Source: a virus
Taxonomy: Duplodnaviria; Heunggongvirae; Uroviricota; Caudoviricetes
DNA: 54,354 nt
Strand: one strand, 5' to 3'
IMG/VR virus record: IMGVR_UViG_2541047692_000008
Span: 1 to 54,354 of that record
Shown: positions 3,710 through 10,660 of the stretch, piece after piece
Numbering within the stretch: the first letter of the stretch is position 1
How the letters are laid out: every line of letters begins with the position of its first letter
Notes under the pieces: generated by a model
What the model saw: only the letters and a program-made list of their open reading frames with translations
Told to the model about the DNA's origin: nothing
Databases searched by the model: none
Program-made: the position numbers and the translations under genes

Positions 3710-5131
3710 TTAAAAAGATGCGTTGTTCTGGCTGTTTCGTGGGGAGAATCGACTTGCCGCCGGACGTTGTTGCATTGACTGAATGCAAGCGGACGCCGCG
3801 CGGGCCTGGTCGCATGGGATGATGTTGCCGTTATCGTCAAACCGCTGGTAAACAGTCCCCGTTTTCCCGTGACGGTTTTTTGAAACGATGATCTCCATAT
3901 ATTCGCGGGCAACCGATTGTTCGTTGTAGTAGCCGTCGCGGTAGACCATGATGATCCGGTCTGCGTCCTGCTCAAGATTACCGGAATCACGCAGATCAGA
4001 ATTGTTCGGGCGCTTGTTCGGTCGTTCCTCAACGCGGCGGGATAATTGCGCCAGCGCCGCCACTGGCACGCGCAACTCTTTCGCCATCATTTTCAATGAC
4101 CACGACAATTGCCCTACGGCGAGATCATGACGTTCGGCCTTAGCCAGCTTCATTAACCCGATGTAGTCAATCATTACCATCCCCAGGTTAGGATGGTCCT
4201 GTTTCATCCGTTCGACGGTGGCGCGTATTTCCTCGATCGTTAACTGCGATGCGTCAACAATCCACACATCGAGATCGGCAAGGGCACTCATTCCCTGGGC
4301 GACGTGCGCCCAACCTTCGTCATCCAGTTTTACCGGATTACGTAGGCAATCCGTTGATAAGTTCCCAGCGCCAGCGATAGCACGTTCAGTCATCTGATCG
4401 AGCGACATTTCAAGCGTGAACAGCAAAACGCCGACCCGCTGACCTTCGCCGCCAGGGTATGGACGTTCAGCCGCCGCGCGGGCAATTGCCAACGCCAACG
4501 CCGATTTACCAGACCCTGGGCGTCCGGCGATAAGCACCAGATCAGTAGCATTAATGCCGCCTAACATTTCGTCGAGTGGGTCAATCCCTGTTTTGATGTT
4601 GTCAGAGTTCACGCCACACTCCATGCGTTTACTTAGCACTTCCGTGTATTCCTGGACCGCATCGCGCAACAGCACCGGGATAATTTGATCTTTTGTTACC
4701 TTTAATTTTGAATACCGGGAATCAAAATCTTTCATCGTCTCTTTGACGACTTCAAGCGTCCCTGTTTCCAGCTTGTAGCGAATGTCTTCCATTAGTTCCA
4801 GCATTTGCCGCCGCTGGTGTTCTTCCTGTAGTAGTTGAGCATATCCTTTCAGGTTGGCAGCAGAAGGACACGATCGCGCCGTTTGCATCAGCGGTACAAA
4901 ATTTTCGTTGCCAATCTCATCACCAACCAGCAAGGCGTCGATAAGATTTCTGTTTCTGGCTTGCGCCCGGATAATTTCAAAAGCCCGCTTATATAGCGGA
5001 ATAGTGAACACTTCAGGATCAAGCGTAGCGAGAACATCTTGCGCGTTAGGAGTAAGCCCACCTAACAGCAGGCCACCGATAACCGCCGATTCTCTTTCTT
5101 GCCGCAATGAGTTTACTTGTTCGGTTACCAT
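3710..5131 (-). CDS. DnaB-family replicative DNA helicase
   Basis: 473 aa; Walker A GRPGSGKS, Walker B-like VMIDYIGLM, C-terminal RecA-like region; ggagg RBS upstream of ATG. Confidence 0.85.
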   Translation of the reverse strand: MVTEQVNSLRQERESAVIGGLLLGGLTPNAQDVLATLDPEVFTIPLYKRAFEIIRAQARNRNLIDALLVGDEIGNENFVPLMQTARSCPSAANLKGYAQLLQEEHQRRQMLELMEDIRYKLETGTLEVVKETMKDFDSRYSKLKVTKDQIIPVLLRDAVQEYTEVLSKRMECGVNSDNIKTGIDPLDEMLGGINATDLVLIAGRPGSGKSALALAIARAAAERPYPGGEGQRVGVLLFTLEMSLDQMTERAIAGAGNLSTDCLRNPVKLDDEGWAHVAQGMSALADLDVWIVDASQLTIEEIRATVERMKQDHPNLGMVMIDYIGLMKLAKAERHDLAVGQLSWSLKMMAKELRVPVAALAQLSRRVEERPNKRPNNSDLRDSGNLEQDADRIIMVYRDGYYNEQSVAREYMEIIVSKNRHGKTGTVYQRFDDNGNIIPCDQARAASACIQSMQQRPAASRFSPRNSQNNASF

Positions 5132-5149
5132 TATGGCATCGCCTCCGGT

Positions 5150-6181
5150 TTACAAAATGGAATATTCAGGGTAATAAACAAAGCGCCCGATTTCCCCATG
5201 ATCCTGGCTATAAATAATCACCGCAGCCAGCCGCCGCGACCGCCAGCCGCCATTAGTCGAATAAGCGTCTTTACCCGCTAACGTGCCGTGATACTCAACA
5301 ACGCCTAACGATGATTCAATCAGCCGTTGATGATGCCAGTGCCCGCAATGAGCGTAAACCGCCGACGACTTGCCGAAATCTTCCCGCCAGTCAGAGACGC
5401 AGGCAGCCAGCAAATTTTCTGGTTTTTTGATAGTGTGACCGTGATGATAGGCAAGGAATGTTTTGCCGTACTGTGTGTGGTGTACGATAGCAGGGGACAC
5501 GTCAACCGTTACGCGCGGTTCATCTTCGTAAAAAGCAGCCAGCGCCGCACGTAGCCAGATCATTCCTGATTGGTCGTGGTTGCCGGATAATACCTGGATT
5601 TCGATTTCTTTGTGGTTTAACAACATCTTTCCTACCGCCCGCCGGACAGACCGGATCGCCACATAAACAAGTTTTGCGTAGCGTGAATCGCAATCAAGTA
5701 CGTGATTGCTTGATGGCGTCACTGGCAACAGCCCATCAGTGTGAAGAACATCCCCACCGAGAAGCAATACAGCTTTTTCAGACATCGGCGCTGCTCCTAC
5801 CGCGTAGTCAAAGAAATCATTTATCACGCGCTCAGCGATCCCAGTGTCGTAGCTTTCTCCGCATTCAGCTTTATGAGCAAGCGCCCCGATATGCAGATCA
5901 AATACTGGATAAAGGGCCAGGCTTTTTTGAAAATCAATTTCCGGCACTGGCACGGCCTCCGCGCGGGGCATTTCTTCCGTGAAAGCATCACAAGCCGATT
6001 GAATCAGCCTTTCCATTTCATCGCGATCACGGGCTGTTTTAATCCAGCGCATAATCACATTGCCATCTTTATCAACGAGCAATGATTCACCGTCAACACC
6101 GAAGCCAGGAGCGCGGCGAGTGGATATTAAACCGCGCTTCGCCAACCTTGCGCCCAGTCGTTCGACATTGCGTTTTGACAT
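5150..6181 (-). CDS. Calcineurin-like metallophosphoesterase with N-terminal HTH (N-terminus appears split by a frameshift)
   Basis: Motifs DLHIG, GGDVLHTD, GNHD, HHGH, GHWH; HTH ...YKQIAEKYGMSKRNVERL continues upstream of the annotated ATG in frame, while a well-placed RBS+ATG at 6249 is in another frame. Confidence 0.6.
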   Translation of the reverse strand: MSKRNVERLGARLAKRGLISTRRAPGFGVDGESLLVDKDGNVIMRWIKTARDRDEMERLIQSACDAFTEEMPRAEAVPVPEIDFQKSLALYPVFDLHIGALAHKAECGESYDTGIAERVINDFFDYAVGAAPMSEKAVLLLGGDVLHTDGLLPVTPSSNHVLDCDSRYAKLVYVAIRSVRRAVGKMLLNHKEIEIQVLSGNHDQSGMIWLRAALAAFYEDEPRVTVDVSPAIVHHTQYGKTFLAYHHGHTIKKPENLLAACVSDWREDFGKSSAVYAHCGHWHHQRLIESSLGVVEYHGTLAGKDAYSTNGGWRSRRLAAVIIYSQDHGEIGRFVYYPEYSIL

Positions 6182-6282
6182 GCCGTATTTTTCAGCGATC
6201 TGTTTATACGTTAAACCGTTTGTTCATCGCTGATCTTTCTTTGTGACATAGTGTTATTTCCTAAGGTTTACATTTTGTATAC

Positions 6283-7227
6283 TCATTGGCAGCAAACAAT
6301 CTCTTTGTATGCTTCTTCTACCATGTAGAATACTTCCGGACTGTAATAGAAAAACTCATTACTACCATTAAATTTTACAGGAAAGTTAATTTTATAATTG
6401 CTAAAAGCCTTATGCATCGTTCTTTCTAATTCATATATATTTTCGGTTGGTCCATATAGCGTTTTCACGATATGCAAATCAGGAATTATAACGCCTGCTT
6501 TATGTGCGCTTCTTAATACCTGATTTCTTCGCTCGTTCTCCTTAACACTTACACCTATTTTCATTTGTGTAGGTACTTCCAGATCATCAACCATGATGTA
6601 AAGTTTTCCGTGATCGTGGGATAAAAACCCGTATTTCGCGCATTTCTGGCAACCGCGCCCGTGTTTAATGTTGCAAGGTCTAGCCGACCACTCATGATCA
6701 CAGACCTTGCAGCGGCATAATACTTTTGTTTTGTCATTAACAATTTCACCTATCACTTCGATATTGGGATTAACCTTTGCAATAGCTGCAACTTGTTCTT
6801 CATGCGTCAATCTTTTTTGTCCTTGCTTTAATCTTGCGCATTTCGGGCAACCCATCCCGCGCTTAAGGTCGCCAGGAATAGGCGACCATTTATGATCGCA
6901 AACTTTGCAGCGGCATAATACTTTTGTTTTGTCGCCAGTAATTTCCCCCAATACTTCAACATCAGGGTTAACTTTCGCAATAGCTGCAACTTGTTCTTCG
7001 TGTGATAATATTCGTTTTTGCGCGCGTTTTAATACCCCGCATTTCTGGCAACCGTTACCTCGTTTAATGCTGGCAGGCTTAGTCATCCACTCATAATCAC
7101 AAACTTTGCAGCGGCATAATACTTTTGTCCCGCTGTTTACTATTCTCCCTAACACTTCAATATCAGGATTAACTTTCGCAATAGCTGCAATTTGCTCTTC
7201 ATGCGTCATCTTGCGCGGCATAATCAC
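6283..7227 (-). CDS. Zinc-ribbon triple-repeat protein with C-terminal T5orf172-like domain
   Basis: 314 aa; three about 66 aa repeats HEEQ(V/I)AAIAKVNP..KVLCRCKVCDH.W....K.G.GC.KC (two CxxC pairs each); C-terminal ...YIMVDD...KIGVSVKENERR...ELE..MHKAF...EFFYY resembles T5orf172/GIY-YIG-related pattern (recalled, not searched). Confidence 0.6.
   Translation of the reverse strand: MIMPRKMTHEEQIAAIAKVNPDIEVLGRIVNSGTKVLCRCKVCDYEWMTKPASIKRGNGCQKCGVLKRAQKRILSHEEQVAAIAKVNPDVEVLGEITGDKTKVLCRCKVCDHKWSPIPGDLKRGMGCPKCARLKQGQKRLTHEEQVAAIAKVNPNIEVIGEIVNDKTKVLCRCKVCDHEWSARPCNIKHGRGCQKCAKYGFLSHDHGKLYIMVDDLEVPTQMKIGVSVKENERRNQVLRSAHKAGVIIPDLHIVKTLYGPTENIYELERTMHKAFSNYKINFPVKFNGSNEFFYYSPEVFYMVEEAYKEIVCCQ
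6625..7206. repeat. Intragenic tandem repeat, about 198 bp x 3
   Basis: gcagcggcataatacttttg recurs at 6709, 6907 and 7109; corresponds to the three zinc-ribbon protein repeats. Confidence 0.8.
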
Positions 7228-7373
7228 TTCTCCTTGCTAAATCCAACAAAACGCCTCAGACGCGCTACAACGCAAAATTCCACCGCGTAACCCATTTGCA
7301 CAGGTTGCAGTGTCTTATTGCGTCAGAGGCGCTATCAGGTGTCTAATTTTTGATTTACAGAATGGTAGGTAGG

Positions 7374-7475
7374 TTATGGATTGACTAGAAGGAACAAACC
7401 GCCGAACAAAGCGACGTTAACAGCGATTGCGGCAGCGATGGCAAAAGCCAGGGCGAAAACGTGTTTACCGTCCAT
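7374..7475 (-). CDS. Small hydrophobic peptide (33 aa)
   Basis: Hand-found: MDGKHVFALAFAIAAAIAVNVALFGGLFLLVNP, preceded by gagagga RBS; lies in the 380 bp intergenic region upstream of the zinc-ribbon gene. Confidence 0.35.
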   Translation of the reverse strand: MDGKHVFALAFAIAAAIAVNVALFGGLFLLVNP

Positions 7476-7608
7476 TTTAAAATCCTCTCTGTAACGCTCT
7501 ATAACGAGCTAATCGCAAAAAGGTAAGCAAGTGTAGCACCACATGCGATTTAGCTCGCTGGTGAGGTTGTTTTGTGGGTAATTTTGGATTTTTGCGGATC
7601 GTGATTGG

Positions 7609-8655
7609 TCAAAGAGCGCCAGCGCGCGTATCACGTAGCGTTTTTGGTTTAAGCAGGAAATCAAGTGTCGCGGTGAAGCCATCGCCGAAGTAAAAATCTG
7701 AAGCCGTGTTTTTGAACGTTTCGAAGTAGGCGACAAAGCCGTTAATGCTTTTGTCTTTCAGGTAGTCAGTGAACGCATAGATCTTGCGTTCAAGATCCCG
7801 ATCCAGTTCGGCAGGTGGTAACAGGCCGTCAAACGTGCTGTTAAATGCTTCCACCACGTCGGCAGCGTTTACAGTGGCTGACAGTTTGCGCCATTGTTCA
7901 GCATCAGTCAGATACCCATCAAATTTAGTTACCCGGCAAATATTGATAGGCTTAGGTGTTCCACCACGGCTACGCCATTGCGTTAAAGCCCACTCAATCA
8001 CTAATGTGATCTCATCCTCCGTATACGCTTTACGTGTTTTTGTTTCTGTCAGTAGTTCGATGAATGGCTTCGCATCACGACATTTGCATCCTGCCTTGTC
8101 GTTGTAGAAGGCCAGGCAACGCAACGCCGCTTCGTTTACGCCATCCTGATTGACTATTTTTTGTTCATTTTCGACAATACACGAAGTGTATATATCTTTT
8201 TCTCTTTCTTCTTCTACTTCTAATTCATGACCCTTTCCTGACCCGGTCATGACCCTATCATGACCTTTTTGTGTTGGATTGATTAACTTTTCTAATTTTA
8301 ATTGCTCCTTAGCTGTGTTTATGGCGGCCCTGTAAGCGCTTTTAGAAGTCATTGATTGGTCCAGCCTTTTTAATAACTTTAGGCAAGTTATGTGGCCTTG
8401 AGAACATTCGAACAAACCGATTTCGATGAAGTATTTCATCATTTCTTCTATACGTTTTTCAGTCGATCCGACGTTTCGAGCAATGATTCTCGCGTCATGT
8501 CGTAGGTCAAAAGTCAGATTGTGCTGATCTACGTCATAAGTTATTAGTTCGAGGCAATACCAATAAAGCCCGTACCCTTCCAGGCCATAATCTAACAAAA
8601 CGTTTTGAAGTTTTTCATCGCGGTTCGCATCGCTGTCATGCTTAAACCACTTCAT
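7609..8655 (-). CDS. Phage replication initiation protein (DUF4373-like N-terminal domain)
   Basis: 348 aa; N-terminus MKWFKHDSDANRDEKL...YGLEGYGLYWYCLELI matches the Lin1244/Lin1753-type N-terminal pattern of phage replisome organisers; position upstream of helicase. Confidence 0.65.
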   Translation of the reverse strand: MKWFKHDSDANRDEKLQNVLLDYGLEGYGLYWYCLELITYDVDQHNLTFDLRHDARIIARNVGSTEKRIEEMMKYFIEIGLFECSQGHITCLKLLKRLDQSMTSKSAYRAAINTAKEQLKLEKLINPTQKGHDRVMTGSGKGHELEVEEEREKDIYTSCIVENEQKIVNQDGVNEAALRCLAFYNDKAGCKCRDAKPFIELLTETKTRKAYTEDEITLVIEWALTQWRSRGGTPKPINICRVTKFDGYLTDAEQWRKLSATVNAADVVEAFNSTFDGLLPPAELDRDLERKIYAFTDYLKDKSINGFVAYFETFKNTASDFYFGDGFTATLDFLLKPKTLRDTRAGAL

Positions 8656-8658
8656 AGA

Positions 8659-8926
8659 TCATCCCTCCGGCAACATCACTACATAGACATCACTGAATGC
8701 ATCAAGACGACAAACAAATCCTTTATCCATTAACGCGGCGAAGGCATCATGTACCGTATGAACAGGAAGTTCACACGTTGCGGCTACTTCTTTGCGTGAT
8801 GCATCATGTACCCGTCCTTTGTTATCTGCCTTTTCAGCCAGAGCCATTAAGACAAGTTTTTGAATCGGGCTATTAAGTTTTACGTTCCATGCTTTACTAA
8901 TCATGTTTATACTCATCGCATTTTCT
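8659..8926 (-). CDS. HTH DNA-binding protein at Cro position (early regulator or replication-associated)
   Basis: Track ORF starts TTG at 8994; ATG at 8926 (MSINMISKAW...) has aggagaaaa RBS; motif KLVLMALAEKADNKG typical of HTH_36-type winged helix; first gene of operon divergent from the repressor. Confidence 0.55.
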
Positions 8927-8994
8927 CCTATGGTTAGAGTGAACGCGCGGGCGGGCATCCCATTAGCATTAGATAGCAGTGACTGACCGCTCAA

Positions 8995-9221
8995 CAGATC
9001 CCGCCGTTGCGTGATATTTGTTTTTCGCTTCGCAGCGACACCGGATTTTTAAAGAGCATAAGGTAAGTGCCTTTTTGTGCCTTCCGTTATCTTTTTCCTT
9101 GCGTCTTTGCAAGTATGGCCTTACCTTGTCTGCAAGTTTACAAAATGGAATTTTAAGATCAAGGCTTAAAATACACGTTTTGTGACTTGCATCAAACTTT
9201 TTGAGGTTATAGGGTAGCGAC
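8995..9221. promoter_or_regulatory. Divergent immunity-region control region with candidate operators
   Basis: CTTGC/GCAAG inverted half-sites at 9097-9114 and 9124-9137, ACTTGCA at 9185-9192, plus GTTTACAAAATGGAAT at 9136-9151. Confidence 0.45.
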
Positions 9222-9869
9222 ATGAAAACAAAATGGTATGACTTAGCAAAGCAGCTCATGCGGGCGCAGGGCATGAGCCAGGATTCGCTCGCGGATCGTA
9301 TGGGGATAACTAAAGGCGGCCTGTCACACTGGCTGAACGGTCGCCGAGAGCCAAATCTTGAAGATATTGCGCGGATTATGCGCGAGCTTGGTCGTCGGCA
9401 GTTTACTGTTACACATGATGGCATGGTCATTGATGATTCTGTTTCTAATACACTTCAGGCCGTGCCGCCGCGTGATTTAGGTAGTTACCCGGTTATTGAC
9501 TGGAAGGACACAGTAAACAATATGGATGACGCAAGGCGTTCAGCATTACGACACGTTACGACTAGCGTTATTTGTTCAGATGACAGTTACTGGCTGGTTG
9601 CCAAAGGTGAATCAATGAACGCGCCGCAGGGGTTGAGCATCCCGGCGGGGACGATGATACTTGTGGACCCGCACGCGCCAGCTATTGACGGCAAACTGGT
9701 TATAGCCCAGCTTGAGGAAGGGCAGATACCGACGTTTAAACAGTTGATTATTGATGGAGGTCAAAGGCTTTTACGTTCGCTCAATCCGCTGTATCCGCCA
9801 ATCCCTATGAATCCAGAATCAAAAATTATAGGCGTGGTGGTTGATGCGAAGATCGTAAACCTGCCATAA
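9222..9869 (+). CDS. cI-like repressor (HTH-XRE + S24 LexA-type peptidase)
   Basis: 215 aa; N-terminal HTH (MSQDSLADRMGITKGGLSHWLNGRR), C-terminal S24 signature ...VAKGESMNAPQG...GTMILVDP...GKLVIAQL. Confidence 0.85.
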   Translation: MKTKWYDLAKQLMRAQGMSQDSLADRMGITKGGLSHWLNGRREPNLEDIARIMRELGRRQFTVTHDGMVIDDSVSNTLQAVPPRDLGSYPVIDWKDTVNNMDDARRSALRHVTTSVICSDDSYWLVAKGESMNAPQGLSIPAGTMILVDPHAPAIDGKLVIAQLEEGQIPTFKQLIIDGGQRLLRSLNPLYPPIPMNPESKIIGVVVDAKIVNLP

Positions 9870-9875
9870 ACATTA

Positions 9876-9899
9876 GCCGCCGAATGGCGGCTTTTCTTT
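9876..9899 (+). terminator. Rho-independent terminator after repressor gene
   Basis: gccgcc-gaat-ggcggc stem-loop followed by ttttctttg. Confidence 0.6.
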
Positions 9900-10274
9900 G
9901 CCTGGAAAACACCAAAACGTAAACAGAAAACGTTATTTATTATTTAAATATCAATGGCATATAAAATATTTTAAAAAAGTATACAAAATGGATTGACTCG
10001 ATGTTTTACGGGGCGTATATTGCGAGTCAAAGGAAGGGCGCAGGTAACAAAAGCAACTTCCTGGCACTTTAAAAATCAGGCTTAACACCTTGTCAACCGT
10101 GGAGTAACTCCCCGATGGGGGACCGAAAGCGGCACTGATAACAAGGCGCATGGGGTGTTTAAAGCGTTACATCCCCCACGAAACCGCACGCAAGGCGACG
10201 AGTCAGCTTGCTTGGAGTGAGCAAGGTCACGCCGGGAACGGCGATGATTGCGGGATTAGTTGAAAGATGTTAAG

Positions 10275-10313
10275 CCGCTCATTAACAATCTGGTCAGCCG
10301 CTGGAAGTGCGGC
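10275..10313 (+). promoter_or_regulatory. Candidate nut site (boxA-like CGCTCATTAA + boxB-like hairpin)
   Basis: cgctcattaa resembles boxA consensus CGCTCTT(T)A; 11 nt later gccgc-tggaagt-gcggc hairpin with purine-rich loop; about 60-95 nt upstream of the N-like ORF. Confidence 0.45.
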
Positions 10314-10408
10314 AATTAACGAAGATGATTTTTTATTAAGTATCATCAAGGATATACGGAGATCAGATTATGAGCGTTACAATTATATATGGTAAATGTG
10401 ATAGCAAA

Positions 10409-10660
10409 ATGAATGCCAGGGAACGCAGAAGGATAAAAAGAGAAAACGAAAGAAAATCATCACCTGCAATCAATAAAACAGACAATGTGGATAAAGCTAT
10501 TCGATTTGCAAACGAGGAAAGATGCAAACCAAATAGCATTAAAGAACGTCGCAAAGGATCAGTAAAATGGTATACGGAAAATGAAAGCGGCAGCTACTAC
10601 CACGCAACGCAACCACGCCATTTAGGGGAAAAACCCCTGGATAAAGTCCGCTACCATTAA
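10409..10660 (+). CDS. N-like antitermination protein candidate (arginine-rich motif)
   Basis: Track ORF 10370..10660; internal ATG gives N-terminal MNARERRRIKRENERK arginine-rich motif like lambdoid N proteins; small basic protein at start of operon. Confidence 0.45.
   Translation: MNARERRRIKRENERKSSPAINKTDNVDKAIRFANEERCKPNSIKERRKGSVKWYTENESGSYYHATQPRHLGEKPLDKVRYH

Follow-up and report, generated by a model that had tools for sequence, protein, structure and literature searches.

We analyzed IMG/VR virus record IMGVR_UViG_2541047692_000008 (Duplodnaviria; Heunggongvirae; Uroviricota; Caudoviricetes), all 54,354 nucleotides of which are referred to here as the window, with a focus on a minus-strand gene for a zinc-finger-array nuclease (6283..7221) that lies inside the replication operon. 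By its sequence, the window belongs to the mEpimmI group of temperate coliphages and is mEp021-like; the genome paper describing this group does not discuss the nuclease gene (PMC11893012). The minus-strand gene order comprises a small helix-turn-helix (HTH)/MarR-type regulator gene (so annotated in relatives), a Lin1244-type replication gene, a 33-codon open reading frame (ORF), the nuclease gene, a metallophosphoesterase gene and a DnaB-type helicase gene, with a LexA/CI-type repressor gene placed divergently upstream of the operon. The upstream flank of the nuclease gene is therefore the replication protein gene (7609..8655, minus strand), recognized by a Lin1244/Lin1753 N-terminal domain (Pfam, 6.3e-11) and by the RefSeq annotation of relatives, and the downstream flank is a gene annotated in relatives as a metallophosphoesterase or “DNA repair exonuclease” (5150..6249, minus strand).

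The ORF at the locus (6283..7227, minus strand) would encode 314 amino acids (aa) from a GTG start, the product given in an earlier reading of the sequence alone (hereafter the original prediction). The GTG at 7227 is too near an AGGAG box to serve as the start, however, whereas the ATG at 7219-7221 suits this box and corresponds to the methionine that begins the proteins of relatives. The ORF thus stands and the favored product, ending at the TGA at 6283-6285, is 312 aa long. Searches returned 294 homologs, several of which carry the NCBI name “GIY-YIG nuclease family protein”. Upstream, approximately 387 bp (7222-7608) separate the gene from the replication gene, in agreement with the unusually long intergenic region of about 380 bp described previously. 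A pattern scan for promoters and terminators detected nothing promoter-like upstream of the nuclease gene, and the terminator-like hairpins that it returned were only weak; the gene reads as part of the early lytic operon.

The N-terminal part of the protein consists of three tandem zinc-finger units of 66-67 aa each, located on the minus strand at 7036..7206 (unit 1, aa 6-62), 6835..7005 (unit 2, aa 73-129) and 6637..6807 (unit 3, aa 139-195), which Tandem Repeats Finder reports as a single array (6637-7212, period 201, 2.9 copies, 75% matches). Each unit has the cysteine pattern CxCxxC-16-CxxC, that is, two CxxC knuckles and one further invariant cysteine. The original prediction had described three near-identical 66-aa repeats with two CxxC pairs each, which it also called perfect; the number of units and the CxxC pairs hold, but the 57-aa cores of the units share only 67-74% aa identity and 75-79% nucleotide (nt) identity. 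The longest exact DNA run common to two units is 29 nt, encodes KVLCRCKVC and is what had been seen at about 6709, 6907 and 7109. By these measures the repeats are old, diverged paralogs and not perfect copies.

Pfam assigns three stretches of the protein to DUF4379, a “probable treble-clef zinc finger” (63.2 bits, 2.6e-17), and to the CapR homology domain (PF21817; 51.4 bits, 1.3e-13). The latter is the finger domain of CapR from the PLE satellites of Vibrio cholerae (Netter et al. 2021, PMC8096241), a repressor that differs from the protein described here in having no nuclease domain and in its cysteine spacing (CxxC-24/26-CxC). Fingers of the CapR type bind DNA, whereas a mutant with Ser in place of Cys does not (PMC8096241). 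Across 368 finger units the five cysteines are invariant in every unit and belong to a near-fixed scaffold that also includes W40, P44, K48, G50, G52 and the hydrophobic core. The fingers are of the treble-clef, CapR/DUF4379 type; basic linkers string them together like beads, and a GIY-YIG-fold domain follows.

This C-terminal domain (6286..6636, minus strand; aa 196-312) is of the T5orf172/GIY-YIG type. The Pfam matches to T5orf172 (23.3 bits, cut-off 20) and MUG113 (23.9 bits, cut-off 22.3) over aa 215-301 exceed their thresholds by narrow margins; the T5orf172 score is 43.3 bits for a homolog at 53% identity (L031). An AlphaFold2 model built on 42 three-finger homologs has a mean pLDDT (predicted local distance difference test score) of 86.9, and its nuclease domain shows the alpha/beta GIY-YIG fold, matching Slx1 and I-TevI. 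The hidden Markov model searches, in which DUF4379, CapR, T5orf172 and MUG113 all score over cut-off, and the predicted fold bear out the T5orf172/GIY-YIG-like C-terminus behind a zinc-ribbon or treble-clef array that had been proposed from the sequence alone. In PHROGs the whole protein matches phrog_681 “endonuclease” (1.1e-54), and the finger region taken by itself has a further match, to phrog_559 “HNH endonuclease” (3.8e-37), which means that this type of array is coupled elsewhere to another class of nuclease. An NCBIfam search of the 312-aa protein gave nothing meaningful, and a profile search of PDB sequences retrieved only DUF4379 mitoribosome assembly factors.

Six residues, Y208, G223, R231, E266, H270 and E289, are invariant in the alignment of the 42 homologs, and five of these are candidate catalytic residues: Y208 (6598-6600), R231 (6529-6531), E266 (6424-6426), H270 (6412-6414) and E289 (6355-6357). 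Profile alignment with hhalign places aa 211-274 on residues 128-188 of Odn (gp88) of phage ICP1 with an E value of 0.0025 and a probability of only 12%, setting R231 on the conserved arginine of Odn and E266 on its E180. Odn is a T5orf172 nuclease that cleaves DNA in vitro, and the substitution E180A leaves it unable to cleave either in vitro or in vivo (Barth et al. 2021, PMC8263062). The domains and fold of the window protein, its conserved residues and the selection described below make it very likely that the protein combines a modular zinc-finger DNA binder with a GIY-YIG-type nuclease that is probably active.

The gene makes up a cassette of its own. The intergenic slot that it occupies is fixed in position, with the replication-initiator region on one side and the metallophosphoesterase gene on the other, and is empty or otherwise filled in close relatives. 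In blastn comparisons with MagusPhagus and mEp010, in which the slot is empty, homology ends at 6287 and picks up again at 7260, so that the inserted unit is a cassette of 972 bp (6288..7259) with the nuclease gene and its ribosome-binding site (RBS) only; in its place these two phages have ∼9 bp. At the same boundaries mEp515 carries a Bro-N/KilAC gene, E. coli UMNK88 a Rha/KilAC gene and E. coli M15 a DUF559 endonuclease-like gene, and several E. coli prophages have the slot empty as well. Alleles of the zinc-finger nuclease fill it in mEp021, E. coli M1/5, eleven RefSeq records and fifteen IMG/VR contigs. These include mEp021 gp12 (AXN54131, “putative zinc-ribbon domain-containing protein”), an ortholog with six fingers and 495 aa, and the E. 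coli prophage proteins named in RefSeq as “zinc-ribbon domain-containing” or “GIY-YIG nuclease family”, whose alleles differ mostly in their fingers; the closest ortholog (P0008) is 93% identical and 312 aa long. The variable accessory position inside the replication operon that had been suspected is thus confirmed, with cargo that differs or is absent among relatives.

The original prediction had further proposed that the nuclease gene was inserted as a pair with the 33-codon hydrophobic ORF upstream of it (7374..7475, minus strand), at a typical accessory or defense position, which can be read as a two-gene module of, for example, a toxin and an effector. The two genes are indeed adjacent on the same strand and the slot is a real cargo hot spot, but only about 6288-7259 is missing from the empty-site relatives and the boundary at 7259/7260 falls 114 bp short of the peptide gene. 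A search of PADLOC-DB 2.0 gave no significant defense-system match, the only hit being a weak, domain-level one of the nuclease domain to PDC-S57 (E 4.8e-4), and there is no promoter-like site between the genes or just upstream of the nuclease gene. As for the ORF itself, the hydrophobic peptide and RBS that had been called by hand are well founded: a conserved GAGG box lies 8 nt upstream, the ORF is exactly 102 nt long in all eight loci compared regardless of cargo, and synonymous outnumber nonsynonymous differences by 9:0 (mEp021 vs. mEp515, which encode the same peptide) and 12:1 (mEp515 vs. UMNK88), with a clear synonymous excess in most pairs. The 33-aa product includes an apolar stretch of 26 residues (best 19-residue Kyte-Doolittle mean 2.55) and occurs at 85-100% aa identity in 15 further viral contigs. 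PHROGs, NCBIfam and PADLOC returned no family for it, and tblastn against the phage collection no match; the low-complexity filter is the probable cause, since several of those phages have the gene annotated. We regard the ORF, from its conservation pattern, as a genuine small membrane-peptide gene under purifying selection. Because it is also present, and intact, in relatives with an empty slot or unrelated cargo, it belongs to the phage backbone and is not a partner of the nuclease, and joint insertion of the two as a module is very improbable.

The right-hand junction of the slot has a small feature of its own. When 7251-7266 is compared with four loci (L002, L003, L004 and L007), those with the zinc-finger nuclease or the DUF559 gene have nine extra bases (CTCAGACGC). 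These bases give rise to a small hairpin with TTTTGTTGG after it, shortly before the RBS of the cargo gene, and also produce a 12-nt inverted match to 7317-7328; empty and Ant-type loci are without them. A comparison of the flanks for differences fixed between cassette-plus and cassette-minus loci, which might mark a target, found that the junction bases are not strictly tied to cargo type.

Homologs at 53-57% identity (P0060 and P0117) occur in an unrelated setting, between nrdD and nrdG on rV5-like lytic coliphage contigs of 59-139 kb, where genes of this type adjoin an HNH gene that splits nrdD. When the 3,009-bp nrdD-nrdG segment was used as a query, only one of 120 related phage records covered at least 80% of it. 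Among the 40 records listed, most have the flanks joined (record span ∼1,825 bp) and a few have another “GIY-YIG” or “homing endonuclease” gene there. Such sporadic presence, as read from these sequence records, is the textbook distribution of a free-standing homing endonuclease gene. In the same phages, beside the zinc-finger T5orf172 gene, nrdD is interrupted by an HNH_3 gene or another ORF and so divided into two or three ORFs (L030:1160-4865, L031:2014-4934, L033:2049-4934), and these genes together make up a small “nuclease island” within the nrd cluster.

Alleles differ in the number of fingers. A census of 120 cluster representatives and the window protein counted two fingers in 19 proteins, three in 53, four in 39, five in 6, six in 3 and seven in one, in each case followed by a conserved tail of ∼118 aa. 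The repeat number thus varies among relatives, as tandem repeats had led the original prediction to expect: within the slot of the window alone, alleles have one (L020-L022), two, three or six fingers in backbones that are otherwise about 90-97% identical. Two of the one-finger alleles (L021:4001-4516 and L022:4001-4501) are frameshifted in the C-terminus after an NEFF motif, and one 233-aa homolog (P0120) is truncated within the nuclease domain; these are possibly decaying copies, as late in the life cycle of a homing gene, or else metagenome assembly errors.

Alleles differ also in what the fingers would read. Ten unit positions (25, 26, 37, 41-43, 45, 46, 49 and 51) are hypervariable in the 368 units, with entropies of 2.4-3.5 bits and mostly polar or charged residues, and the ten-residue signatures they form are of 345 distinct kinds. 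The ratio of nonsynonymous to synonymous substitution rates (dN/dS; Nei-Gojobori method, 30 distinct unit DNAs) is ∼1 at the ten hypervariable finger codons, compared with 0.13 in the scaffold codons and 0.15 in the nuclease domain. For the 61 least saturated finger pairs, the proportion of nonsynonymous differences at hypervariable sites relative to that of synonymous differences (pS) in the scaffold is 1.29, a value drawn from sites chosen for their variability and confounded by recombination. We consider these numbers suggestive only of positive selection at the hypervariable positions. Compared with 17 cassette-bearing relatives, the window has its lowest median nt identity in the finger region (78%), against 90% in the nuclease domain and about 87-98% in the backbone segments. 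Between the window allele and the one closest to it (L034, 93% aa identity) there are 50 nt differences: 37 fall within the first 200 nt, the stretch from nt 200 to 800 is identical, and the other 13 are at the 3′ end; the clustering of these 37 in finger 1 indicates block replacement of a single finger.

A diversity-generating retroelement was considered as the source of this variation. Synonymous differences are spread over the whole of the fingers (pS 0.48-0.51; no reverse-transcriptase scan of the window was made), the finger-1 difference from L034 is a block of 37 changes that includes silent ones, and several hypervariable positions include K, Q, E and M, which are outside the AAY repertoire. 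Because silent sites differ throughout, adenine-directed mutagenesis by such an element is not the source.

We propose, with a probability of about 0.6, that the product of this free-standing gene is a site-specific DNA endonuclease of the homing type, within the T5orf172 branch of the GIY-YIG superfamily, and that it is expressed with the early operon; the homing role and the early expression are deduced from the distribution and position of the gene. Features of the T5orf172 homing endonucleases found here are the Pfam domain, the GIY-YIG fold, the conserved arginine and glutamate, zinc fingers at the opposite terminus, and sporadic presence at a fixed site. The original prediction had held that homology to a homing endonuclease gene, with the repeats absent in relatives, would speak against its own interpretation; the homology exists, to a family already described in phages, and the relatives do have the repeats.

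In the mechanism that we envisage, the nuclease gene would be transcribed with the replication operon during lytic growth, and the finger array of its product would read a long asymmetric DNA site, with the approximately ten hypervariable surface positions of each finger contributing to recognition. The tethered nuclease would then cut nearby DNA of a co-resident relative, either a co-infecting phage or a prophage, that has no cassette or a sensitive allele, and repair by recombination, with the nuclease-bearing genome as template, would bring the cassette together with neighboring markers into the cut genome. The enzyme may be retargeted as recombination between the diverged repeats adds, removes or swaps fingers.

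Several points weigh against this proposal. The T5orf172 Pfam score of the protein is barely over threshold, the probability of the hhalign match to Odn is low (12%), and hhalign found no match between the family profile and the I-TevI catalytic domain. The other cargo genes have the same boundaries as the nuclease cassette, and ordinary homologous recombination in the conserved flanks could explain the polymorphism without any nuclease activity. The dN/dS of ∼1 at the hypervariable positions is partly circular, because these sites were picked for varying. Moreover, a homing enzyme dedicated to one slot should keep its DNA-reading residues, yet these are the most variable part of the locus, a pattern that fits an arms race or a nonhoming use at least as well. 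Finally, the sequence comparisons yielded no target site for the putative enzyme.

The variability of the DNA-reading residues is explained more naturally if the protein is a domesticated conflict nuclease with which the phage, to its own gain, cuts competitors (phages, prophages or satellites) at sites set by fast-changing fingers. The hypervariable residues and number of fingers beside a conserved nuclease domain, and the swapping of a finger between near-identical alleles, are in line with such a role, and there are precedents for co-opted T5orf172 nucleases in Odn, in ICP1 gp5 and in the coliphages Inny and Muut (PMC8263062, PMC10448857). The slot otherwise carries anti-repressor-like Bro-N/KilAC genes, which are typical conflict cargo. 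The known domesticated examples, however, have borrowed a RepA_N domain instead of zinc fingers, and decayed alleles exist. Sporadic intergenic presence next to replication genes in one phage group and next to nrd genes in another, unrelated one is how selfish homing genes are classically distributed. On balance we consider a domesticated weapon, the main rival to homing, possible but unlikely.

A more far-reaching view of the same variation is that the 56-aa units constitute a natural modular DNA-recognition alphabet, each a rigid zinc scaffold with about ten hypervariable residues, and that recombination reshuffles arrays of one to seven units so that the nuclease is continually retargeted in a phage-phage or phage-satellite arms race. 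We put this forward tentatively, as a minority expectation. If true, the protein would be a natural zinc-finger nuclease with no single fixed homing site, the code of which could be read from hundreds of alleles.

The homology of the fingers to CapR raises the question of whether the protein instead binds DNA without cleaving it, tuning the replication operon as a repressor of the CapR kind or an autorepressor of the I-TevI kind. CapR is a transcriptional repressor (PMC8096241), I-TevI doubles as one, and the gene lies inside a regulated early operon. Such a regulator would not be expected to have hypervariable reading residues or to be dispensable in many relatives if it belonged to a conserved operon, and the purifying selection on the nuclease domain together with the invariance of the Odn-aligned arginine and glutamate also argues against it. 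We regard this explanation as quite improbable.

The proposed homing endonuclease is most readily placed by comparison with known phage systems. In their survey of 229 T5orf172 genes, Barth et al. (2023, PMC10448857) found that 87% have zinc fingers of the CapR, DUF723 or DUF4379 type (written DUF4397), often repeated like “beads on a string”, and they described recombination between degenerate repeats within a gene as well as domain swapping; their text does not mention temperate phages or prophages. ICP1 gp174, gp165 and others, and genes of Vibrio phage Helene (PMC10448857), have the same N-terminal zinc-finger array and C-terminal T5orf172 domain, and share with the gene described here DNA-degenerate repeats, within-repeat recombination and number change, domain swapping, a position between conserved phage genes and sporadic presence. 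In contrast to that class, the gene in the window belongs to temperate coliphages of lambda-like organization (mEpimmI) and shows a series of one to six fingers in a single slot, and cleavage and homing in this lineage are putative. Odn (PMC8263062) shares the T5orf172 domain and is origin-directed, but it is a domesticated defense against PLE satellites. Nucleases of the I-TevI type share the modular layout of nuclease, linker and DNA-binding part and are likewise encoded by free-standing genes between conserved replication or nucleotide-metabolism genes; the window protein differs from them in its reversed domain order, with the nuclease C-terminal, in a tandem zinc-finger array predicted to bind DNA instead of a helix-turn-helix or other module, and in the lack of sequence-level similarity in the hhalign comparison noted above. 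The gene fits the T5orf172/CapR-finger homing class on every feature tested and adds to it a temperate coliphage lineage with an unusually clear allele series.

In the segment at 6213-6250, the metallophosphoesterase gene has lost 19 bp at about 6219 by comparison with L034 and with all seven aligned relatives. The frame from the ATG at 6249 consequently ends after 12 codons (MSQRKISDEQTV and a stop), and a 343-aa ORF from the ATG at 6181 remains; the protein of relatives has 372 aa and a weak N-terminal HTH signal. TGTT microhomology flanks the deletion, which is 63 bp from the nuclease gene and could reflect a pseudogene, an error in sequencing or a scar left by repair. The same operon has another variable slot, which lies between the metallophosphoesterase and helicase genes and holds an HNH “homing endonuclease” gene in mEp021, mEp515 and mEp010 (L001:1981-2484, L003:1981-2535, L004:1945-2535); it is empty in the window (5131-5150), where the two genes are only 18 bp apart. 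Furthermore, odn of ICP1 (L035:7828-9415, NC_015157) adjoins a Bro-N/ANT “anti-repressor” gene, the kind of gene that also replaces the zinc-finger nuclease in the slot of mEp515 and E. coli UMNK88. The genomic niches of Bro/KilAC genes and T5orf172 genes seem to be shared.

The remainder of the 387-bp spacer is conserved backbone (82-100% identity to relatives); taken together with the peptide ORF, it is 88-97% identical in all relatives irrespective of cargo. The noncoding stretch from the peptide gene to the cargo slot (7260..7373) is 82-97% identical to all relatives and folds somewhat better than shuffled sequences (z -2.65). That from the replication gene to the peptide gene (7476..7608) contains an inverted repeat, GAGCTAATCGCA / TGCGATTTAGCTC (7506-7517 / 7544-7556; fold z -3.6 vs. 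shuffled), the outer stem of which is kept in 16 distinct sequences from 24 loci. A covariation test of the 7506-7556 hairpin on these 16 sequences found no compensatory pairs. The inverted repeat has no U-run and is therefore no obvious terminator. An Rfam scan of 5000-10500 (E ≤ 1) gave two sub-threshold chance matches, neither of them in the long spacer.

Two motifs had been singled out in this spacer. The family to which tttacagaatgg belongs is over-represented throughout the window (18 matches at ≤2 mismatches vs. 5.9 ± 2.0 expected, a count reached in 0 of 100 shuffles), so that the copy at the locus is one of many and not specific to it, and atggattgact is not enriched at all (3 matches vs. 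1.0 expected, with 8 of 100 shuffles reaching 3). The wider motif, (A)AG-T[TA]TACAAAATG(G), has 12 exact-core copies in the window, tttacagaatgg being one of them: eight on the plus strand (2193, 5149, 7354, 9137, 9980, 17611, 40188, 43264) and four on the minus strand (6281, 17689, 40227, 43206). Copies often form facing intergenic pairs (17611/17689, 40188/40227, 43206/43264), flank the repressor gene (9137, 9980) and, in one case, abut the left junction of the cassette. From this arrangement the motif looks like a phage-wide protein-binding or regulatory site.

For annotation, a “zinc-ribbon domain-containing protein” at this locus would be better named a “T5orf172/GIY-YIG homing-type endonuclease”, and the unannotated 33-codon ORF should be recognized as a real, conserved gene of the phage backbone. 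The homing class of T5orf172 nucleases with CapR-type fingers would be extended from lytic vibriophages to common temperate gut coliphages, among them mEp021, mEp010 and mEp515, which grow on E. coli K-12. With nearly isogenic cassette-plus and cassette-minus phages and alleles of one to six fingers, this group offers a convenient system for questions of homing, cutting and finger specificity. Of most interest is the possibility that the hypervariable fingers form a readable modular code, which, if it proves decodable, would appeal to genome engineers as well.

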